The position numbers and the translations under genes were made by a program. A stretch of 64,000 bases of DNA, from positions 320,001-384,000 of the forward strand of contig JBHLMN010000002.1 in the NCBI GenBank assembly GCA_048938105.1, given 5' to 3'. Below the pieces are notes generated by a model that worked only from the letters and a program-made list of their open reading frames with translations, made no database searches and was not told the DNA's origin. Positions 3,001 through 48,114 of this stretch are shown here, one piece after another. This stretch comes from Promethearchaeota archaeon (lineage in GTDB: Archaea; Asgardarchaeota; Heimdallarchaeia; Hodarchaeales; Hodarchaeaceae). Each line of letters opens with the position of its first letter. The first letter of the stretch is position 1.

Positions 3001-5190
3001 ATGTATAGCGATCTATCACCTCAGACACAATCACTAATTCCAGGAAAAACTGGACATCTTTTTTCTGTAATGCGAGTAGCATCCTTTCATCACTCTCCAC
3101 GATTTGCTTCTTGCTCTTTTGATGGAACTGTAAGAATATGGGATGATGATAAACAGGAGAAGGTTCTTTTCTTTTTCTCAGAGGCTATTGAAGGGCTTTC
3201 AATAACTCCTGACGATAAAAACATTATTGTAATTCTTGGAGATTCTTCAAAAGCTTTTCTTTATAATCTACAGAGTGAACAGACGCATGAAATCGGTGGT
3301 GATATTGCATTTCGGAATATTTTCGGAACAAATCCAAGTAGTACCAAAGTTGCTATCGCTACCTTCAATGATGATGTCTATATATATCACCTTACCTCTC
3401 AGAAGTTAGGATCACATATTTTTGTTGAAAATATGTCTGGAAATTCTCTAATCTGGATAAATGATGATATTTTCTGTATTCCCAAGAGAGATGGTAGTGT
3501 TGTATTAATTAGTAGCGAGAAACGGAAGATTAAACAGGAAATTCCAGTACATGATGGGCTGATAACTTCTATTTGTAGAGACGGGGAGAGTATTGTGACT
3601 GTATCCGAAGATAGGACTGGTAAAATCTCGGATTTGGATTTCAATCCACAATTTGGGTTTAAGATCGACTTCACACCCCTTTCAGTAGATTACAGTGCAC
3701 AAGCGGGAATAGTTGTGGTAGCAGGCGAGAGAAAAATGCTTATTGTCAATACAAATACTGGAGAGCTATTAAGTCATGATCATAGTCTATCTGTTTGTAA
3801 TGCTGTTATTACTCTAGATTCCAAAATTATTAAAGGAACTGGAGAGCGAGATATTTTTATTTACTCTACCACAGGAGAAAAAATATCTCAAATTAAGGGT
3901 CATTCCAATACAGCAGAATTTGTTTCCTTTTTGGGAGATAATATGCTTATTTATGCTTCAGGAGACAAACAAGTACATTATTTAAACTATTCAACAGGTC
4001 AAGATCAAACCTTAGCAGAACATAAAGAAACTGTTTCTTCTGTTCTGTACATTCCATCCCAGAATTTTGTAATTGCAGGAGCATATGATGATACAATCAG
4101 CATATGGGATCTTACAAACCACTCAGAGATTAAACGGATCAAAAAAGTTCCATTAGTCACAGGATTAGCATACTCTCCCTCTGAAGATATCTTTGTCGCA
4201 GCGTGTAGTGGAGATTATTCTTTACATGTTTTTACAATAGAGGGTAAAAAACTAACAACTTGGGCTGCTCATGACGATTTCATAAGTTCAGTCTTCTTCA
4301 TGAATGATGAAGTCATTATTTCTGGGAGCGACGATGGATTCATAAAGTTTTGGAAGCGAAATGGAAAATTAATAAGCTCAGTTGAAACTAAATCAGCAAT
4401 AAAATCGATTGGAACAACGTTGGAATTCGATTATAATGTAACTGGTCATGCAAACGGTGATCTAATCTTTTGGGAGAAAATCTCAAATCGTAAAATAACA
4501 AGTCATAAAGCTGGTGCTCTAATCCAACGAATAAACGTCATTAATAATTCTCTCTTACTTTTTGCAGCTCAAAATCGTTTATACCTCATGCAAATGGATG
4601 GACATCATATAACTAATGTCCAAGAAGTATGTAAGCATACTGAACCTATCCGAGGAATATATAGGCAAGAAAAACCAGAGAAAATCATCACTGTAGCCCA
4701 CAGTGCTGAAATTTATGAAACAACTTTTGTTTCGGAAAGTGAGCTGGTTCCTCCTCCAGCTGCAGAAATAATAGAAGAGAAAATAATTAAACCATCTTCG
4801 ACCGTTATTTTCGCCCCAGGAGCAGTGGAAGAGGATTTTGAAGTATTAGAAACAAGGGATATTCCACTGATTGATGTTGAACCAAGACAAGTAGTGTCTG
4901 AGGTACCTGAAGCTATTTTATCAGTTGATGTTAATCATCTAATGAAAATTTCTGAGTATCTAACACAAGTTACCCAGCAAATCAAAGAACTTGTTGTACC
5001 AGAATTAAAATCCTTTAGAATTGACACTAGTGCTTTAGAAAAATCACTTGAAGATGTACAAAAGAATATTAAGAATCGATTAGCAGAATACAGTGAAGAC
5101 GAGAAAGAAATTGAAGAAAAAACTGATGGAACAGTCCCCCGAGAGAAAAAAGACTGGACTAGTATTGATTGGGGAAAACGAAAACATTAA
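3001..5190 (+). CDS. WD40-repeat beta-propeller protein (likely two propellers) with acidic linker and C-terminal helix
   Basis: Repeats such as SCSFDGTVRIWD, AGAYDDTISIWD, SGSDDGFIKFWK over about 575 aa. Confidence 0.85.
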   Translation: MYSDLSPQTQSLIPGKTGHLFSVMRVASFHHSPRFASCSFDGTVRIWDDDKQEKVLFFFSEAIEGLSITPDDKNIIVILGDSSKAFLYNLQSEQTHEIGGDIAFRNIFGTNPSSTKVAIATFNDDVYIYHLTSQKLGSHIFVENMSGNSLIWINDDIFCIPKRDGSVVLISSEKRKIKQEIPVHDGLITSICRDGESIVTVSEDRTGKISDLDFNPQFGFKIDFTPLSVDYSAQAGIVVVAGERKMLIVNTNTGELLSHDHSLSVCNAVITLDSKIIKGTGERDIFIYSTTGEKISQIKGHSNTAEFVSFLGDNMLIYASGDKQVHYLNYSTGQDQTLAEHKETVSSVLYIPSQNFVIAGAYDDTISIWDLTNHSEIKRIKKVPLVTGLAYSPSEDIFVAACSGDYSLHVFTIEGKKLTTWAAHDDFISSVFFMNDEVIISGSDDGFIKFWKRNGKLISSVETKSAIKSIGTTLEFDYNVTGHANGDLIFWEKISNRKITSHKAGALIQRINVINNSLLLFAAQNRLYLMQMDGHHITNVQEVCKHTEPIRGIYRQEKPEKIITVAHSAEIYETTFVSESELVPPPAAEIIEEKIIKPSSTVIFAPGAVEEDFEVLETRDIPLIDVEPRQVVSEVPEAILSVDVNHLMKISEYLTQVTQQIKELVVPELKSFRIDTSALEKSLEDVQKNIKNRLAEYSEDEKEIEEKTDGTVPREKKDWTSIDWGKRKH

Positions 5191-5317
5191 TAGTTCTCTA
5201 AGAGAGAAACAATATCCAAGTTATTTCCTTAGTATGCAAATGCTTTATGAGTATCAATGGAAAATTAAAGATTAAAATCTTCTAAAACGAAAAAGAAAAT
5301 CAATAGGAAGCTTTGAT

Positions 5318-6553
5318 ATGGAAGAGAGTCCAAGCATCTCTGAAGAATTAAATGAGACGACAGCTATTCCACTAGATCAGCCCCCTGAAAGCAAAATGAA
5401 ACGTTTAGGGGAGTATATGAAAGAGACATTGAAAGAAATGTTCCATACCCTTAGACATCCCGAATTTAAATTTGCAATTTCTGGAATAGTCATCACAGTC
5501 GTATTGATCTTGGTTTCGATATGGTTTCTTATTCATAGAGGAGTTGATCCCAATGCAGAACAACCAATAGATCCTATGAACATGAATCTAATCGGTATCC
5601 TAGTAGGAATAGTTGTTGCATTTATGGTAATCTACGTTTGGTTTTTGTTAGGTTTTAAAATCACACCTAAGGCTGGCCACTATTTAGTAGATAATAAAAT
5701 CTTAAAACTGTTCTTTACAAGAGGAGATGTTCATTACCTCGAATATGTTCCTGTAGAGAAAAGGAAAATTGCAATGCCTAATATTTTAAATAAATTCATT
5801 GCTTTAGTTCTCGCTTGGGTGTCTGTTTCGGCGTTCATAATGAACATGTTAGCTGCATTCTTAACCGAGGGAGATCCCTCTAAATTTATTACTCCTGGAG
5901 ATGATATACTTTTCTTTATCTTACAACAAGTCATTTTATTTATATTGGTTCCATTAATTTTTACATTGATTTATCCACTTGCATGGATGTTGATAGACGC
6001 TAAATTGAAAGCTTATAATTCTGCAACTAAACTTAATTGGTTAGTAGGAAAAAAAGTGGGAAATCTGACTGGAGGATTTATCACTATCGGTTCATTATTT
6101 GTTTTGGGAGCCGATGCATTATCAGCTCCTGATATTCAGGTACGAGCTGAATTATTGATTAATCTTGTTTTATTTTGTTTGATAAATATTTCTTTGACAG
6201 TTATTCTTATTTCTCTGTTCTATAACATTTTTTTCTATGGAAAATTTTATCAAAGAATAATCGAGGATGTAGAAGTTGGTTTTGGTGTCACTTCAGTCAC
6301 ATTAGTTGATAAGAGTGGAGAACCACTGCCAGAGGAACCCGAACCTGCACCCGAGCCTGAGGTTATTCCTGAACCAGAGGAACCTGAACCTACACCTGAA
6401 CCTGAAGTTATTCCTGAACCAGAGGAACCTGAACCTACACCTGAACCTGAGGTTATTTCTGAACCAGAGGAACCTGAACCTACACCTGAACCTGAGGTTA
6501 TTCCTGAACCAGAGGAACCCGAACCTAAATCTTTTATATCAGAAGAGGAGTAA
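5318..6553 (+). CDS. Multi-pass membrane protein with Pro/Glu-rich repetitive C-terminal tail
   Basis: About 6 hydrophobic segments followed by (PEEPEPTPEPEVIPE)n. Confidence 0.8.
   Translation: MEESPSISEELNETTAIPLDQPPESKMKRLGEYMKETLKEMFHTLRHPEFKFAISGIVITVVLILVSIWFLIHRGVDPNAEQPIDPMNMNLIGILVGIVVAFMVIYVWFLLGFKITPKAGHYLVDNKILKLFFTRGDVHYLEYVPVEKRKIAMPNILNKFIALVLAWVSVSAFIMNMLAAFLTEGDPSKFITPGDDILFFILQQVILFILVPLIFTLIYPLAWMLIDAKLKAYNSATKLNWLVGKKVGNLTGGFITIGSLFVLGADALSAPDIQVRAELLINLVLFCLINISLTVILISLFYNIFFYGKFYQRIIEDVEVGFGVTSVTLVDKSGEPLPEEPEPAPEPEVIPEPEEPEPTPEPEVIPEPEEPEPTPEPEVISEPEEPEPTPEPEVIPEPEEPEPKSFISEEE
6329..6526 (+). repeat. Coding tandem repeat, 45-bp unit x ~4.4
   Basis: Unit ccagaggaacctgaacctacacctgaacctgaggttattcctgaa repeated with few substitutions. 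Confidence 0.92.
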
Positions 6554-6563
6554 AGTATTTACT

Positions 6564-8189
6564 TCATTCTTCCCTTTTTCTAATATGATTTTCCAAACAG
6601 CTTTGAACAAAAGCTTTGAACAGGGGAGCTGGTTGTTCAAAACGTGATAAAAATTCGGGATGAAATTGTGTTCCAATAAAGAATGGGTGATCTGGCAGCT
6701 CTCCAATATGAACAACAGAACCATCAGTAGACATTCCTGAGAATGTAAAACCTTTCGTAGCTATCTGAGAAACATAATCAGGATTGATTTCATATCGGTG
6801 TCGAAAACGCTCTTTTGTCTCATCCTTGCCATATATGGTATGCACTCGAGTTCGTTTTCTAATTTTCACAGGATATAGTCCAAGTCGCATCGTTCCTCCC
6901 TTGCGATAAATTGTACGTTGTGAAGGTAAAAGATCAATCACAGGATAAGGAGTATCTGGATCGAATTCTGTTGAATTAGCATTTTCAAGGCCACAAATAT
7001 TTCTCGCAAACTCAATAACAGCACACTGAAGCCCTAAACAGATTCCTAAGAAAGGTAATTCATTCTCCCGCAGTCTTGTGATCAAGGAAATCTTTCCCTC
7101 GATACCCCGATATCCAAAGCCTCCAGGAATAATAATACCATCACAAGTTTTGATATGGTGATCCAAGTCCTTAGTAGTTATATTTGTTGTTTCAATAAAT
7201 ACTGGATTTACTTTTACACCTAAATGAGCTCCTGCGTGAGTCAGTGCTTTAGCAATTGAGACATAAGCATCTCCGAGTGCTGTGTATTTGCCACCAACAC
7301 CAACAATCACATTTCCAATTGGCTTCTTGATCTTATCTAGAAGATCTCTCCAAATCGAAAGTGAAGGTAATCTTTTAGGGCCCATCTGCAATTTCTTGAA
7401 TACACTTGCTAGAATTTCTTCTTCCAATAATTGAAAGGGGTACTCATAGATTATTTGGACATCGTGTCCACTAATGACATCGGACACAGAAACATTGCAG
7501 AACATGGCAACTTTTTGGCGTACATCTGGATTTAATGGCTTTTCAGAGCGGCAAAGGAGAACATCGGGTTGTATTCCCATCCCTTGTAAGGTTTTAACAC
7601 TTGCCTGAGTTGGTTTTGTTTTTTGTTCTCCCACTACTTTTAGGAACGGAATAAGTGTTACATGAACCCAGCAAACATCTGATTTGTCACAACTTAACGC
7701 CAATTGCCGCAGAGCTTCAATAAAATATGCGTTCTCAATATCTCCAATTGTTCCACCTACTTCAACCAGCGTTATATCAACAACATCGTCTTTCTGGCGT
7801 ATCCACGAAATTATTTCGTTTGTGACATGGGGGATAAACTGAATATCTTGGCCGAGGAACTCTCCTTGCCTTTCTTTTTCAATTATATTTCGGAAGATTT
7901 GGCCCCCGGTTAGAGAAGACCAAGAATCAAGTGAAATATTAAGAAATCTCTCATATGTACCAAGATCCATGTCAGTTTCAGTACCATCATCAAGAACAAA
8001 TACTTCCCCGTGTTTGAAAGGATTTATTGTACCAGCATCTACGTTTAAATATCCATCGAATTTGATCGGACAAACAGAGTAACCAGAACTACTCAGGAGC
8101 TTCGCGAGAGAGGCAGCTAATAGTCCTTTACCTAAACCACTCATTACTCCTCCTGTTACAATAATGTATTTGTTACTTATTCTAATCAC
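6564..8189 (-). CDS. pyrG: CTP synthase
   Basis: TGGVMSGLGKG, DGYLNVDAGT, KTKPTQ, GICLGLQ and QFHPEF motifs. Confidence 0.98.
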   Translation of the reverse strand: MIRISNKYIIVTGGVMSGLGKGLLAASLAKLLSSSGYSVCPIKFDGYLNVDAGTINPFKHGEVFVLDDGTETDMDLGTYERFLNISLDSWSSLTGGQIFRNIIEKERQGEFLGQDIQFIPHVTNEIISWIRQKDDVVDITLVEVGGTIGDIENAYFIEALRQLALSCDKSDVCWVHVTLIPFLKVVGEQKTKPTQASVKTLQGMGIQPDVLLCRSEKPLNPDVRQKVAMFCNVSVSDVISGHDVQIIYEYPFQLLEEEILASVFKKLQMGPKRLPSLSIWRDLLDKIKKPIGNVIVGVGGKYTALGDAYVSIAKALTHAGAHLGVKVNPVFIETTNITTKDLDHHIKTCDGIIIPGGFGYRGIEGKISLITRLRENELPFLGICLGLQCAVIEFARNICGLENANSTEFDPDTPYPVIDLLPSQRTIYRKGGTMRLGLYPVKIRKRTRVHTIYGKDETKERFRHRYEINPDYVSQIATKGFTFSGMSTDGSVVHIGELPDHPFFIGTQFHPEFLSRFEQPAPLFKAFVQSCLENHIRKREE

Positions 8190-43462: not shown

Positions 43463-44257
43463 ATGAATCTATCTGTAAATGAAATCTATAATAAGAATTG
43501 CCTTGAAGGCCTGGATCAGATAAAACCTGAAAGCGTGGATCTCTTACTAACAGATCCCCCTTTTGGAATAGACTTTGACAAAGTTGGGTCTCAGTATAAT
43601 AGAAAGCAGAAAGAATTGGGACGATTTTATACAGAAATACATGGAGATTATTATGATTTTACCCTTCAATGGCTTCAAGCTGCTTGGAAAGCAATGAAAC
43701 CAACCGCAAATGGATTTATTTTTTCAGGATGGAATCGTCTTGGAGATATCCTAAACGCATTAACAGAGATAGGTTTTAGGTTGGTTAATCATCTTATTTG
43801 GAAATACCAATTCGGTGTTTTTACAAAAAAACGTTTTGTCACAAGTCATTACCACATACTTTACTTTACAAAGCTTGCAGCAAAGGAAGACAGTAATCGT
43901 ACCTTCAATCGTATATCTGAATATTCAAGTTCTCTAGGTAAACTATATTTTGAAGATGTTTGGAGAATTAAAAGGGACTATCAGAAGGGTGGGGAAAAAA
44001 CTCCAACACGGCTACCATTAGCAGTAACAGATAAATGTATTCGAATGGGGAGTAATGAAGGGGACATTGTGTTAGAACCTTTTTTAGGAAGTGGTTCTGT
44101 GGTCATATCATGTATCAAATACAACAGACGCTATATAGGTTTTGAAATTTCAGAAAAAATTTTCACCATTGCTAAAAAGCGGATTGAAAAAATGCAAAAT
44201 CATCTTGAGGGAAGAAGCTACAAGCTCGACGATTGGTTGATAAAACCTAAGAACTGA
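43463..44257 (+). CDS. Site-specific DNA methyltransferase (N4-C/N6-A, beta-type order), orphan
   Basis: Catalytic DPPF precedes SAM-binding EPFLGSG; no adjacent endonuclease. Confidence 0.9.
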   Translation: MNLSVNEIYNKNCLEGLDQIKPESVDLLLTDPPFGIDFDKVGSQYNRKQKELGRFYTEIHGDYYDFTLQWLQAAWKAMKPTANGFIFSGWNRLGDILNALTEIGFRLVNHLIWKYQFGVFTKKRFVTSHYHILYFTKLAAKEDSNRTFNRISEYSSSLGKLYFEDVWRIKRDYQKGGEKTPTRLPLAVTDKCIRMGSNEGDIVLEPFLGSGSVVISCIKYNRRYIGFEISEKIFTIAKKRIEKMQNHLEGRSYKLDDWLIKPKN

Positions 44258-44282: not shown

Positions 44283-45296
44283 GTGGTTTATCTAGTCACT
44301 GGTGGCACAGGATTAATCGGAAGTTTCATAGTAGAAAGACTTGCGAATGACACACATTATAACAATGGGGAATGTCGTGTAATTGTACGAACACCAGAAA
44401 GTAAAGCTGCAATCATGAATCAAGGGCTTATTCCAATAAAAGCGGATCTTAATGATCTGAACAGTTTAAAAAACGCAATGAAAGATGTTGAGGTTGTTTA
44501 TAACCTTGCTGCTGTAGCTTCTGATTGGGCTAGTAAGAAACAATTATTTAAAGTTAATGTGGAGGGAATGGAAAATTTATTGGAGGCTTGTCTTAATACT
44601 AACACTGATCCATTCCTAGCACATACAAGTTCGACTGGAGTTTATGGACATTTTATTCCTAAGATTCCGATTGATGAGAACTACAAATTTAATCCCACTA
44701 GTACATATCAGAAGAGCAAATATCACCAAGAAAAGGCAATTTGGGATATCTGTGATAAGGAAGGCTGGAAAAACTTTGGTATCCTCCGCCCTCCGAGTGT
44801 CATAGGTCCTAGAGATACAAAAACGATTTTAGGTATCTTTAAAGCAGTATATGAGCGAAAATTTCCCATTCTACGTAATGGAAGGGGGTACTTAACATTT
44901 ATTCACCCTCTTGATTTATGTTCAGCCTTGTTGCTACTTTACGAAAATAAACACCAAGCAAAAGGCCAAGCTTTCAATTTGAAATCATTTGAATGTCGTT
45001 TAATCGATTTTCTTGATTATATTGTAAAAACGATTTCTCCTCCCAAACCACCTAAACATGTCAGCTATCGAATGGTGTATACTATCGCTGTCCTTTCAGA
45101 GATATACGTTAAATTAACAGGAAGACATACTACTTTAAACCGTTATCGGGTTACTAAATTTGCATTATCACGGAGATATATCGATCAAAAAATTAAGGAC
45201 GTATTGGGTTTCAAGCCACAAAAGACCATGGAAGCAACCATAGACGAAGCATATAAATGGTTAGTTCAACATAATCTATATCCACCCGCTCATTAA
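44283..45296 (+). CDS. NAD-dependent epimerase/dehydratase (extended SDR, 3-beta-HSD-like)
   Basis: VTGGTGLIG, YNLAA, SSTGVYG, YQKSK, LRPPSVIGP. Confidence 0.9.
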   Translation: MVYLVTGGTGLIGSFIVERLANDTHYNNGECRVIVRTPESKAAIMNQGLIPIKADLNDLNSLKNAMKDVEVVYNLAAVASDWASKKQLFKVNVEGMENLLEACLNTNTDPFLAHTSSTGVYGHFIPKIPIDENYKFNPTSTYQKSKYHQEKAIWDICDKEGWKNFGILRPPSVIGPRDTKTILGIFKAVYERKFPILRNGRGYLTFIHPLDLCSALLLLYENKHQAKGQAFNLKSFECRLIDFLDYIVKTISPPKPPKHVSYRMVYTIAVLSEIYVKLTGRHTTLNRYRVTKFALSRRYIDQKIKDVLGFKPQKTMEATIDEAYKWLVQHNLYPPAH

Positions 45297-45469: not shown

Positions 45470-46399
45470 TTGCGGTCAAGGTTCTTAATGATGTCCTCTG
45501 AAGATGTTGATCCGATCGTCGATGCTAAAGTTCTGCTGATAGAGGACTCTCGTGATCATCAATTCCTATTTCTTAAGCGCTTAAGTAAGTTTGGCCTAAA
45601 AAAAGTTGTAGTTTGCGAAACAGGGGAATTAGGTGTTGAAAAAATTAAGTCTGATCCATCATTCGATATAGTTCTTGTTGATTACTCACTTCCAGGCAAA
45701 TCTGGGATTGAAGTAATTAGGGAGATTAGAAGACTAAATCCTGAAACACCTATTATTATGATCACAGGTTTAGGATCTGAAAAGATAGCAGTACAGGCAA
45801 TGAAGCTCGGGGTACAGGATTATCTCACAAAGGATGATTTTTTAACAAGTAACACGAACATAAAGCACATTTTCACCCAAATTTTATTAGAACATCGTGC
45901 TCAGCAGGAAATGATACTTGCTAGACGGTTAAAAGCTAAACCAGAACAATTATCAGTTTCAGTGTATAAATTTGGCCAGTTTGGTCCAGAACCGTTTCTC
46001 ACATCACATCTCCCTTTTGAAGAGTCATTTTCAGAAAGAGAAAAAGAAAATTTTCTCATAAAAATCGGAACTCATTATATGACTGCAACAGGTGCGGGAC
46101 ATGAGTATTCAAGAGGATTGTTTGAATTACCTGTTCCGAATTATGAAAAGTATAGAGGATTGGTATTTGGATTTCGAATGGCTGAAAAATATCATAACGA
46201 TGTACGCATACATGGGAATAAAGCAGAGAATTATGGCCTAATAGTAATCTTATTCCCAGTACTATATCGCTCGATTCTACCAAACAGATCAACAATTGAG
46301 AAACGCTTAGATGAACTTTTGTCAGCTTATTCAGATATGGGAGAATTAGATGAACATTTTATTGCCCGAACTAAGAATGTTTTCTTTGAATCTCAGTAA
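45470..46399 (+). CDS. Response regulator (REC) fused to an uncharacterised, possibly longin/uDENN-like, output domain
   Basis: LLIEDS, DIVLVDYSLPGKSG, MITG, YLTK; C-terminal domain begins VYKFGQFGPEP. Start may be ATG 45488. Confidence 0.88.
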   Translation: MRSRFLMMSSEDVDPIVDAKVLLIEDSRDHQFLFLKRLSKFGLKKVVVCETGELGVEKIKSDPSFDIVLVDYSLPGKSGIEVIREIRRLNPETPIIMITGLGSEKIAVQAMKLGVQDYLTKDDFLTSNTNIKHIFTQILLEHRAQQEMILARRLKAKPEQLSVSVYKFGQFGPEPFLTSHLPFEESFSEREKENFLIKIGTHYMTATGAGHEYSRGLFELPVPNYEKYRGLVFGFRMAEKYHNDVRIHGNKAENYGLIVILFPVLYRSILPNRSTIEKRLDELLSAYSDMGELDEHFIARTKNVFFESQ

Positions 46400-46506: not shown

Positions 46507-47163
46507 ATGAGATATATCATTGTGAAAATAATAGGAGTACCTTTCTTAATTCTTTTCATGAATCTTGGCTTCATTTTAGTAGCTAGGGAAGTATTCAGCA
46601 ATCTTTCAACAATAGTCCCAATTCTTCTTCTTGATGCATTTATCTGTATAGATATCATTATAAGACCAATTTCTGCAAAAAAAGATAAGTTTAATCGATT
46701 TATTAGTGCAATTTCATTTTTATTAATACCAATCTGGTTTACATTACCATATTTTGAGTTCAAAGTGCTAATTTCTAAAAGTCTTCCTTCCTTCATATTA
46801 AATTGTGTATCAATAATTGGAACTGTATTACTTGTTTTCGGAGGCCTTCTCTTGTTATTTAACCGGATACATCTAGGAAAATATGGCGGTCCAAAGCTTG
46901 TAATTGAAGAAGAACACCAGCTAATAACCACAGGTCTGTATAAATTTGTTCGACACCCTATGTATTCTGGATTCTTAATCTTATTTTTTGGTTACTCTTT
47001 AGCTTTCGGGAGTATTCTCATGACAATTACGATAACAACTGTTTTATTTCTAATATTTAAAACACGAATGGATATTGAGGAAAAACTACTAATAACAGAG
47101 TTCGGTGAAGAGTATTCTACATATATGAAGCGAACTAAGCGGTTGTTCCCTTTATTGTATTAA
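46507..47163 (+). CDS. Isoprenylcysteine carboxyl methyltransferase / PEMT family membrane protein
   Basis: HQLITTGLYKFVRHPMYSG, EEKLL..EFGEEY..YMKRTKR. Confidence 0.9.
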   Translation: MRYIIVKIIGVPFLILFMNLGFILVAREVFSNLSTIVPILLLDAFICIDIIIRPISAKKDKFNRFISAISFLLIPIWFTLPYFEFKVLISKSLPSFILNCVSIIGTVLLVFGGLLLLFNRIHLGKYGGPKLVIEEEHQLITTGLYKFVRHPMYSGFLILFFGYSLAFGSILMTITITTVLFLIFKTRMDIEEKLLITEFGEEYSTYMKRTKRLFPLLY

Positions 47164-47235
47164 TAATTGTTTTTTAATTCAAGAAAGACTAAATCTCAGG
47201 GCATTACACATATAGTAATTATAGGAGGTCAGAAA

Positions 47236-48114
47236 ATGGGAATAGAAAAAACTTCCAGTTACCATGAAGTTGAACTTATTGAAGAAGAAGCATCAGCTCT
47301 CTATGAGTTGGAGGAAATAACTAGATTGAAAATACCAAGTGGGAAATGTGGATTTTATAACTCAGGTTTCAAATTTAAAGACAAAAAAATTATCGGATTA
47401 AGCCTTCATCATAGAGAAATGTCCTATCTGCCTGGATGTATAGGTAATTTTCGCTACATTCAGAAATTGTATTTACGTGACAATCAACTAAGCGCTCTCC
47501 CTGATTGGATAGGTGACTTGCAAAATTTAAAGAATTTAGATGTATTCAATAACCAAATAAAATCCTTACCCAAGAGTATAGGAAAATTAGTGAACCTAGA
47601 GAGACTAGATTTATCACGAAATCAGACGAAGAAATTACCAAAAAGCATAGGAAATCTAAAGAGGCTTAAGAGGTTAGGCTTGTTACATGTTCAATTGGAG
47701 TGTCTCCCACAATCTATTGGAGAGTTAATAAACCTCCGAGATTTATGTGCAAACATAAATTACTTGAAATCATTACCTGAGTCACTTGGAAATTTAACCA
47801 AGCTTAAAGATTTAAGTCTTCATAAAAATCAATTAATAGCTGTTCCAGAAACTCTGGGAAACTTACAAAACCTAGAAGTATTAAGTTTACATAATAATAA
47901 ATTGACTTTTCTTCCTGATAGCATTGGAAAATTAACTGAATTGAAAACATTAAGACTTGAGAATAATCGTTTGAATACACTGCCTTTAAATATTAAAAAC
48001 TTAAAAAACCTTCAAAGTCTATGGATTGGCAATAATTTATTTGATAAGTTGTCTGACGAATTGGAAAACTGGATTAAATACCTGAAATCCTCAGGATGTA
48101 AGGTTAGGAGATAG
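47236..48114 (+). CDS. Leucine-rich repeat protein (about nine 23-aa LRRs)
   Basis: LxxLxLxxNxLxxLPxxIG repeats; GGAGGT SD before ATG 47236. Confidence 0.92.
   Translation: MGIEKTSSYHEVELIEEEASALYELEEITRLKIPSGKCGFYNSGFKFKDKKIIGLSLHHREMSYLPGCIGNFRYIQKLYLRDNQLSALPDWIGDLQNLKNLDVFNNQIKSLPKSIGKLVNLERLDLSRNQTKKLPKSIGNLKRLKRLGLLHVQLECLPQSIGELINLRDLCANINYLKSLPESLGNLTKLKDLSLHKNQLIAVPETLGNLQNLEVLSLHNNKLTFLPDSIGKLTELKTLRLENNRLNTLPLNIKNLKNLQSLWIGNNLFDKLSDELENWIKYLKSSGCKVRR

Follow-up and report, generated by a model that had tools for sequence, protein, structure and literature searches.

Can a prokaryotic phosphorelay be wired directly to the control of eukaryote-like small GTPases? This question is raised by one gene in a 64,000-nucleotide stretch of DNA from a Promethearchaeota archaeon of the order Hodarchaeales (contig JBHLMN010000002.1, positions 320,001 to 384,000; G000:C6:320001-384000 in our numbering), which belongs to an assembly of 5.85 Mb in 65 contigs and is called the window below. 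A preliminary description, made from the letters of the window without database searches, had proposed that the open reading frame at 45470-46399 joins an intact receiver (REC) domain to a longin/uDENN-like output domain. Our analysis leads us to consider it moderately probable that the product of this gene is an orphan two-component response regulator with, as its output, a folliculin/NPRL2-type longin domain, the type that occurs in GTPase-activating proteins (GAPs). We infer from this a role in small-GTPase regulation, most likely GAP activity.

The reading frame is uninterrupted on the forward strand, stop codon included. Its TTG at 45470 is merely the longest possible start and yields a 309-residue reading; the first in-frame ATG, at 45488, yields a protein of 303 residues. 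Since the recorded gene product (P0002, 303 residues) and all orthologues begin with M(M)SSE, corresponding to this ATG, we took 45488-46399 as the coding sequence, and residue numbers refer to the shorter protein unless stated otherwise. Forty-five homologues (45-86% identity) keep the same two-domain layout, and the mean column identity of the C-terminal part in the orthologue alignment is 64%; the two-domain pattern is therefore more than chance. Close homologues are named by their sources as Hodarchaeales, Hodarchaeota or Heimdallarchaeota archaeon, or as Kariarchaeaceae. Strict orthologues of the receiver-longin protein (E ≤ 1e-60) occur in single copy in six of the seven genomes that were sampled from the genus-level group of the window, and only one weak match was found among 143 other sampled Asgard genomes. 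In the full-length AlphaFold2 (AF2) model (predicted local distance difference test, pLDDT, 87.6; predicted template modelling score, pTM, 0.72) the receiver spans residues 14-120 and the longin domain residues 156-297, with a linker helix at 122-150 that appears again, at model residues 2-17, when the C-terminal domain is modelled alone.

The receiver proved to be as intact as the preliminary description had held. It matches Pfam PF00072 with an E-value of 4e-21 (75.7 bits against a cut-off of 30.2; residues 21-122 of the 309-residue reading), and the acidic pair, the phospho-acceptor Asp65, Thr93 and Lys115 are all present and conserved. Across 35 orthologues, Glu19 and Lys115 are invariant, Thr93 is retained in 34, and Asp20 and Asp65 in 30 each. 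The acceptor is replaced by Glu in the remaining five (P0039-P0042 and P0044, the source name of P0041 being Kariarchaeaceae), three of which also have Gly for the second acidic residue; their longin domain is still conserved. Judged by these substitutions, the Glu-bearing orthologues appear to be natural pseudo-receiver or phosphomimetic versions, a side branch that gave up phosphotransfer. Among the 35 orthologues the receiver and the linker are conserved to the same degree as the longin domain.

As to the kinase, the genome holds 30 HATPase_c matches, the nearest about 19 kb upstream of the regulator (C6:346569, at about 26569 in the window). We examined the gene contexts of four distant receiver-longin proteins: two contigs were too short to inform, no GTPase gene was found, and one context was a kinase operon. 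There, a receiver-longin protein of 304 residues heads a same-strand operon (L026:445-5188) that continues with a second receiver protein (333 residues), a FIST sensor, a histidine kinase and a CheY-like receiver. Because a distant member sits in such a FIST-histidine kinase-CheY operon, the receiver-longin class is used in real two-component pathways.

The C-terminal domain (142 residues), searched as residues 150-309 of the longer reading, has no match in Pfam or NCBIfam at E 10, and PDB sequences gave no meaningful match to it, either with the single sequence or with an 89-sequence profile. Its AF2 model, built with 34 orthologues, has a mean pLDDT of 87.2 and a pTM of 0.85. The order of elements assigned by DSSP is the linker helix followed by beta-beta-alpha-beta-beta-beta-alpha-alpha-alpha, with no N-terminal helix inside the domain, unlike roadblock proteins. 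We compared the model with 48,161 PDB representatives using VIA-align, a search that is independent of Foldseek and whose matches are named here by complex, not by subunit. The best match was the longin domain of a Lokiarchaeota Roadblock-Longin protein (8yqg; Z 11.5, root-mean-square deviation (rmsd) 3.1 A over 133 aligned residues, 16% identity), followed by the Lst4 longin (Z 9.9) and a chain of the lysosomal folliculin complex (Z 9.8). Next came SEA/GATOR1 chains (Z 8.4 and 8.0), adaptor sigma subunits (8.4 and 7.9), C9orf72-SMCR8 (8.1), TRAPP and Mon1-Ccz1 (7.2-7.6) and SNARE longins (6-7.1); the top 12 rows (Z 7.4-11.5) are longin-containing chains throughout. Foldseek likewise placed 8yqg first (E 1.2e-4).

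The longin fold, which had been called by eye, is thus upheld by the element order of the AF2 model and by longins ranking first in two independent structure searches; in the model the domain folds as a longin and not as PAS, GAF or another non-longin fold. The motifs listed in the preliminary description are also in place: SVSVYKFGQFGPEP begins at 45953, GLFELPVP lies inside 46091-46138, and DVR (46199-46207) is followed by YGLIVILFP. Of the two names it had given to the domain, longin stands, and uDENN holds only as a synonym of longin, the GP hairpin being absent from DENND proteins (PMC12290439) and no DENN or dDENN module following it: the protein ends six residues past the last longin helix and has no Pfam DENN match. 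It does not belong to the DENN family. Neighbours of the domain in the ESM-Atlas are Asgard clusters, some of them with Folliculin or NPR2 Pfam members or with Arf-like GTPase fusions; a protein-atlas feature search returned sub-threshold leads only, including an NPR2-bearing cluster at 0.81.

What places this longin near the GAP type is, in the first place, a pair of motifs. According to PMC12290439, a GP motif just before strand 2, beside the arginine finger, is a specific mark of GAP longins (FLCN, NPRL2, SMCR8 and C9orf72). FNIP2, NPRL3, adaptins, TRAPP and DENND proteins lack it, and the pair of GP motif and arginine finger is found in Heimdallarchaeia longins too. In the AF2 model of the window protein, Gly166-Pro167 sits between strands 156-162 and 167-172, exactly before strand 2. 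Arg240, in the loop between strands 4 and 5, comes 73 residues after the GP motif; the spacing in SMCR8 is 78 residues (G68-P69 and R147; PMC12290439). In an 89-sequence alignment of the wider family, near-invariance is seen in the Gly of the GP motif, in two Gly and a Leu-Pro near helix 1 and strand 3, and in the Asp-x-Arg of this loop.

A relation to the folliculin type is also visible by profile comparison. The window protein itself has no match to PF11704 (Folliculin) or PF06218 (NPR2) even at E 10; NPR2 has no match anywhere in the genome, and none in control genomes either, so this last result is uninformative. Among 89 relatives of the domain, however, four matched PF11704 weakly (best E 3.6e-4), which was the sole family matched by more than two members. 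The same genome encodes a 449-residue protein that scores above the PF11704 cut-off. When the longin family was aligned to the Asgard family of this Pfam-Folliculin protein, hhalign gave a probability of 93.8% and an E-value of 1.7e-7 over 103 columns; in that Asgard family both the GP motif and the loop Arg are invariant. Neither the Pfam-Folliculin protein of the genome nor its 19-sequence family profile matched any PDB sequence. The relation to the folliculin type, as far as sequences go, is visible only profile to profile and through Asgard intermediates. A further Pfam Folliculin match (23.5 bits) was noticed at G000:C52:42106-42354 (L015), inside a stop-free frame of 8,857 residues that would encode a giant folliculin-type longin protein.

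The most conserved stretch of the domain, GAGHEYSRGLFELPVP, covers the end of helix 1, the following loop and edge strand 3. G204, H205, G210, L214, P215, V216 and P217 are invariant in the orthologues, and in the wide family its G and LP reach a conservation of 93% or more. When two copies of the linker plus longin were co-folded, the median ipSAE of three runs was 0.60, against 0.00 for the best control; of the proteins solved as one-chain pairs 20 of 30 attain a mark of 0.60, as does one of 23 solved as single chains. The runs share at least 92% of their contacts, with a partner pLDDT of at least 82. Helix 1 end, the GAGHEY...GLFELPVP stretch and strand 3 form the predicted interface through a symmetric strand-strand pairing, which would explain why conservation peaks in this stretch, and the GP hairpin and Arg240 lie outside it and are left free. 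The longin domain is therefore predicted by co-folding to form a symmetric homodimer in the usual longin/roadblock mode; the score may, however, merely reflect likeness to the solved similar dimer 8yqg.

Beyond the receiver-longin proteins, the domain belongs to a large family. A profile search of 1.8 billion proteins retrieved 314 cluster representatives at E ≤ 1e-3, of which 115 were at 1e-10 or better. Members are about 140-950 residues long, with one of 4,023, and the longin domain is usually C-terminal. Pfam domains co-occurring in 103 representatives include PAS (28), TPR (up to 19), REC (14) and GAF (8). Since PAS, GAF, TPR or REC modules precede it, the domain acts like an output for sensors of the one- and two-component kinds. 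Ten of the members that we looked up carry a name, and each of these comes from Asgard archaea (Odin-, Thor-, Heimdall- and Hermodarchaeota, and Hodarchaeales). The genome of the window has eight copies of the domain. One stand-alone family member of 306 residues adjoins a gelsolin-repeat protein of 403 residues (G000:C65:12031-13242; L021:1032-2243; minus strand).

Several of these copies lie next to small GTPases. The genome has about 70 Rag/Arf-like small-GTPase loci, and for three of its seven independent longin-family loci a small GTPase gene is no more than 2.5 kb away (chance about 0.006 in this genome). In one of them (L016), a paralogue of 273 residues with no Pfam match is part of a tight same-strand operon with three Gtr1/RagA-like GTPases, namely a RagA/Gtr1-like protein of 334 residues, a divergent Rag-like protein of 332 and a RagA-like protein of 309; this cluster is a ready-made set of regulator and target candidates. 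Another Rag-like gene is found 2 kb upstream of the cluster, on the opposite strand. At two further loci, G000:C41:118822-122895 (L017) and G000:C41:154046-160254 (L018), a fusion of a NosD/right-handed beta-helix to the longin (784 and 574 residues, respectively) stands tail to tail with an Arf-like GTPase (159 and 188 residues). The second of these loci additionally has a stand-alone longin of 238 residues.

If the gene indeed encodes a response regulator with a GAP-type longin, a histidine kinase would phosphorylate Asp65, and the linker helix would relay this event to the pairing or the exposure of the longin platform. The platform would then bind one of the roughly 70 Rag/Arf-like small GTPases encoded in the genome and would most likely speed GTP hydrolysis via Arg240, as FLCN, NPRL2 and SMCR8 do in eukaryotes. 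A more specific version, which we put forward tentatively and hold to be somewhat doubtful, is a phosphorylation-switched homodimeric longin GAP for a Rag/Arf-like GTPase: a one-polypeptide prokaryotic forerunner of the GATOR1 and folliculin GAPs, in which a His-Asp phosphorelay replaces the amino-acid sensors and the Glu-bearing orthologues are locked on.

A number of observations weigh against such a regulator. With respect to the GAP assignment, FLCN and NPRL2 were not reached among PDB sequences from the 89-sequence profile of the longin family, and hhalign puts the arginines of this family and of the Asgard Pfam-Folliculin family in the same loop, two columns apart. Arg240 is a candidate arginine finger that may correspond to FLCN R164, NPRL2 R78 or SMCR8 R147; these searches gave no residue-level equivalence. 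In eukaryotes, longin GAPs act as heterodimers and with DENN or other C-terminal modules, none of which the window protein has. [quoted passage not shown] The literature that we searched reports no structure or activity for any receiver-longin protein. With respect to the gene context, no histidine kinase gene adjoins the regulator in the six orthologous loci examined. The window regulator has no small GTPase gene within 180 kb, the nearest Ras-superfamily gene being 181 kb off, and the conserved methyltransferase and epimerase neighbours described below suggest nothing on GTPases. We considered the downstream DRG GTPase as a target and rejected it: DRG is a translation-type GTPase, and its adjacency is restricted to close relatives (the window and L005) and is lost in the more distant orthologous loci.

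Part of this evidence can be read in other ways. The longin may be a GTPase platform that is not a GAP, acting instead in nucleotide exchange, as an effector specific for a nucleotide state or as a scaffold in the manner of Mon1-Ccz1, TRAPP, Ragulator or MglB-type proteins, with phosphorylation controlling its assembly. The matches of the model to Mon1-Ccz1, TRAPP, adaptor sigma and roadblock chains (Z about 6-8.4; 5.8-6.4 for the roadblock proteins), the predominance of GEFs among longin/roadblock dimers in the reviews just cited and the generic nature of a symmetric dimer are all consistent with this. We nevertheless consider it rather unlikely, because the GP hairpin and the loop Arg are near-invariant, a pair that PMC12290439 describes as specific to GAP longins and as lacking in adaptins, TRAPP and DENND proteins, and because the folliculin type gives the best profile link. 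The same signature and profile link argue against a longin role unrelated to GTPases, in which the domain would serve for dimerisation or protein binding, like the longins of SNAREs or adaptors, controlling for example the products of the methyltransferase and the epimerase. These two are the sole neighbours kept in 6/6 loci, the window regulator has no GTPase neighbour, SNARE and adaptor longins match at Z 6-8.4, and longins without GTPase roles exist (PMC10933270); but the longin family adjoins small GTPase genes in this genome, including the Rag-like operon, and we regard this reading as improbable, a shade more so than the non-GAP platform.

The two remaining alternatives concern the roles of the individual domains. 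It is very unlikely, in our view, that the protein serves chiefly as a phosphate sink or as a constitutive factor whose phosphorylation is little tied to longin function. Such a protein would fit an orphan regulator without an adjacent kinase, and the five orthologues with Glu for the acceptor Asp, three of them also without the second acidic residue, imply that the family can work without phosphotransfer. On the other hand, all catalytic residues of the receiver are kept in the window protein and in 30 of 35 orthologues, the receiver and linker are as conserved as the longin, and a distant receiver-longin is found in a kinase operon. That the C-terminal domain is a PAS/GAF-like small-molecule sensor, and hence a second input, has been largely refuted and now seems barely credible. 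LOV/PAS, GAF and IclR effector domains do appear in the lower rows of both structure searches, and these folds share an alpha/beta sandwich with longins. Their scores are weak, however (Foldseek template modelling scores of about 0.3 with rmsd of 10-14 A; VIA-align Z of 5.7 for a GAF domain and 5.7 or less for PAS/LOV and GAF, against 9.8-11.5 for longins), the model has its elements in longin order, and proteins of the wider family already have PAS or GAF N-terminal to the domain, which makes the domain an output.

A GAP-type longin under receiver control would not be without precedent in concept. Liu et al. (bioRxiv 10.1101/2020.10.19.343400, Fig. 5c; Nature 2021) described Asgard "NPRL2-like longin" domains fused to two-component domains and concluded that growth regulation in Asgard archaea stays centred on two-component systems with 'eukaryotic' regulators. 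The window protein resembles these fusions in its Asgard homologues, in a longin of the NPRL2/FLCN kind (by fold and by profile) joined to a receiver, and in the meaning proposed for it as a GTPase regulator; it differs in the extent of description, the passage of that paper devoted to the fusions being one sentence and one figure panel, which give no structure or activity. The fusion type and its proposed meaning are therefore already published, and the window protein adds a member.

Eukaryotic relatives of the domain act in FLCN-FNIP (on RagC/D), in NPRL2-NPRL3 of GATOR1 (on RagA/B) and in C9orf72-SMCR8 (on Arf/Rab). The window protein shares with them the longin fold (Z 8-9.9), the GP before strand 2, the loop Arg and, by prediction, a dimerising longin platform; unlike them it has no DENN or other C-terminal module, is predicted to be a homodimer rather than a heterodimer, and takes its input from a receiver. 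The best structural match, 8yqg, is likewise Asgard and dimeric, but its longin is fused to a roadblock domain and not to a receiver; we found no paper on this Lokiarchaeota protein in the literature searched. Receivers are tied to modules of the roadblock/longin superfamily, or to small-GTPase control, in other prokaryotes as well: the REC-NitrOD3 response regulators of Thaumarchaeota combine a receiver with a roadblock-like domain (Galperin et al. 2018; PMC5847659), and Myxococcus has RomR/RomX with MglA/MglB. NitrOD3 is, however, roadblock-like and not a longin, RomR is a separate receiver protein and MglB a roadblock protein, and neither the NitrOD3 nor the Myxococcus proteins carry the GP and Arg signature, as far as tested.

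Longin GAP complexes (GATOR1, folliculin and C9orf72-SMCR8) control mTORC1 and lysosome signalling and include disease genes, and their origin is a question of eukaryogenesis. With an Asgard version that is small, soluble and made of one chain, and that can be switched on by a simple chemical (BeF3- or acetyl phosphate), it would be convenient to test whether the longin with GP and arginine already acted as a GAP ahead of eukaryotes, and which GTPases of Asgard archaea it serves. Two extras are useful: the Asp-to-Glu variants that occur naturally, and the Rag-operon paralogue in the genome of the window. The value of the locus is thus that of a well-characterised candidate, with its fold, motifs, predicted dimer and Asp-to-Glu variants, and not that of a discovery, and its gene context offers no target GTPase.

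Table 1. Features of the receiver-longin gene, its neighbours and the Rag-operon paralogue (window positions, except in the last row).
Feature	Position	Strand	Evidence
Coding sequence, receiver-longin response regulator (303 residues)	45488..46399	+	Open reading frame list, P0002, N-termini of 35 orthologues, translation checked
Receiver (REC) domain	45530..45835	+	Pfam PF00072; AF2 (beta-alpha)5 fold over residues 14-120
Phospho-acceptor Asp65 in VLVDYSLP	45680..45682	+	Asp in 30/35 orthologues, Glu in the other five
Linker helix, 29 residues (122-150), receiver to longin	45851..45937	+	AF2 full-length model
Longin domain (residues 156-297), beta-beta-alpha-beta-beta-beta-alpha plus two C-terminal helices	45953..46378	+	AF2, VIA-align, Foldseek, hhalign
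Gly166-Pro167, GP motif, beta1-beta2 hairpin	45983..45988	+	G 86/89 and P 72/89 in the wide family; 34/34 orthologues
Most conserved stretch, predicted homodimer interface	46091..46138	+	Orthologue and family alignments, homodimer prediction
Asp238-Val-Arg240, beta4-beta5 loop, candidate arginine finger	46199..46207	+	D 86/89 and R 85/89 in the wide family
N6/N4-type methyltransferase	43463-44257	+	Pfam
NAD-dependent epimerase/dehydratase	44283-45296	+	Pfam
ICMT/PEMT-family membrane methyltransferase (218 residues) and leucine-rich-repeat protein (315 residues), between regulator and DRG GTPase	46507-48114
L016 cluster: Rag-like 4275-5279, divergent Rag-like 5218-6216, longin 6213-7034, Rag-like 7051-7980	G000:C52:99775-103480	same strand, ends overlapping or near-abutting

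Around the regulator itself, the methyltransferase and the epimerase are found directly upstream and in the same orientation in all six orthologous loci (the window, L003, L005, L022, L023 and L024), and they may form an operon. The downstream side is more variable. In the close relative CP070695.1 (L005) the DRG gene directly follows the regulator; in L003 and L022 the next gene downstream codes for a regulator of the TrmB family, and in L023 DRG and the receiver-longin gene are set apart by a block of genes. In the window, DRG is preceded by the two genes given in Table 1, one of them of the ICMT/PEMT family; in eukaryotes, ICMT methylates prenylated small GTPases.

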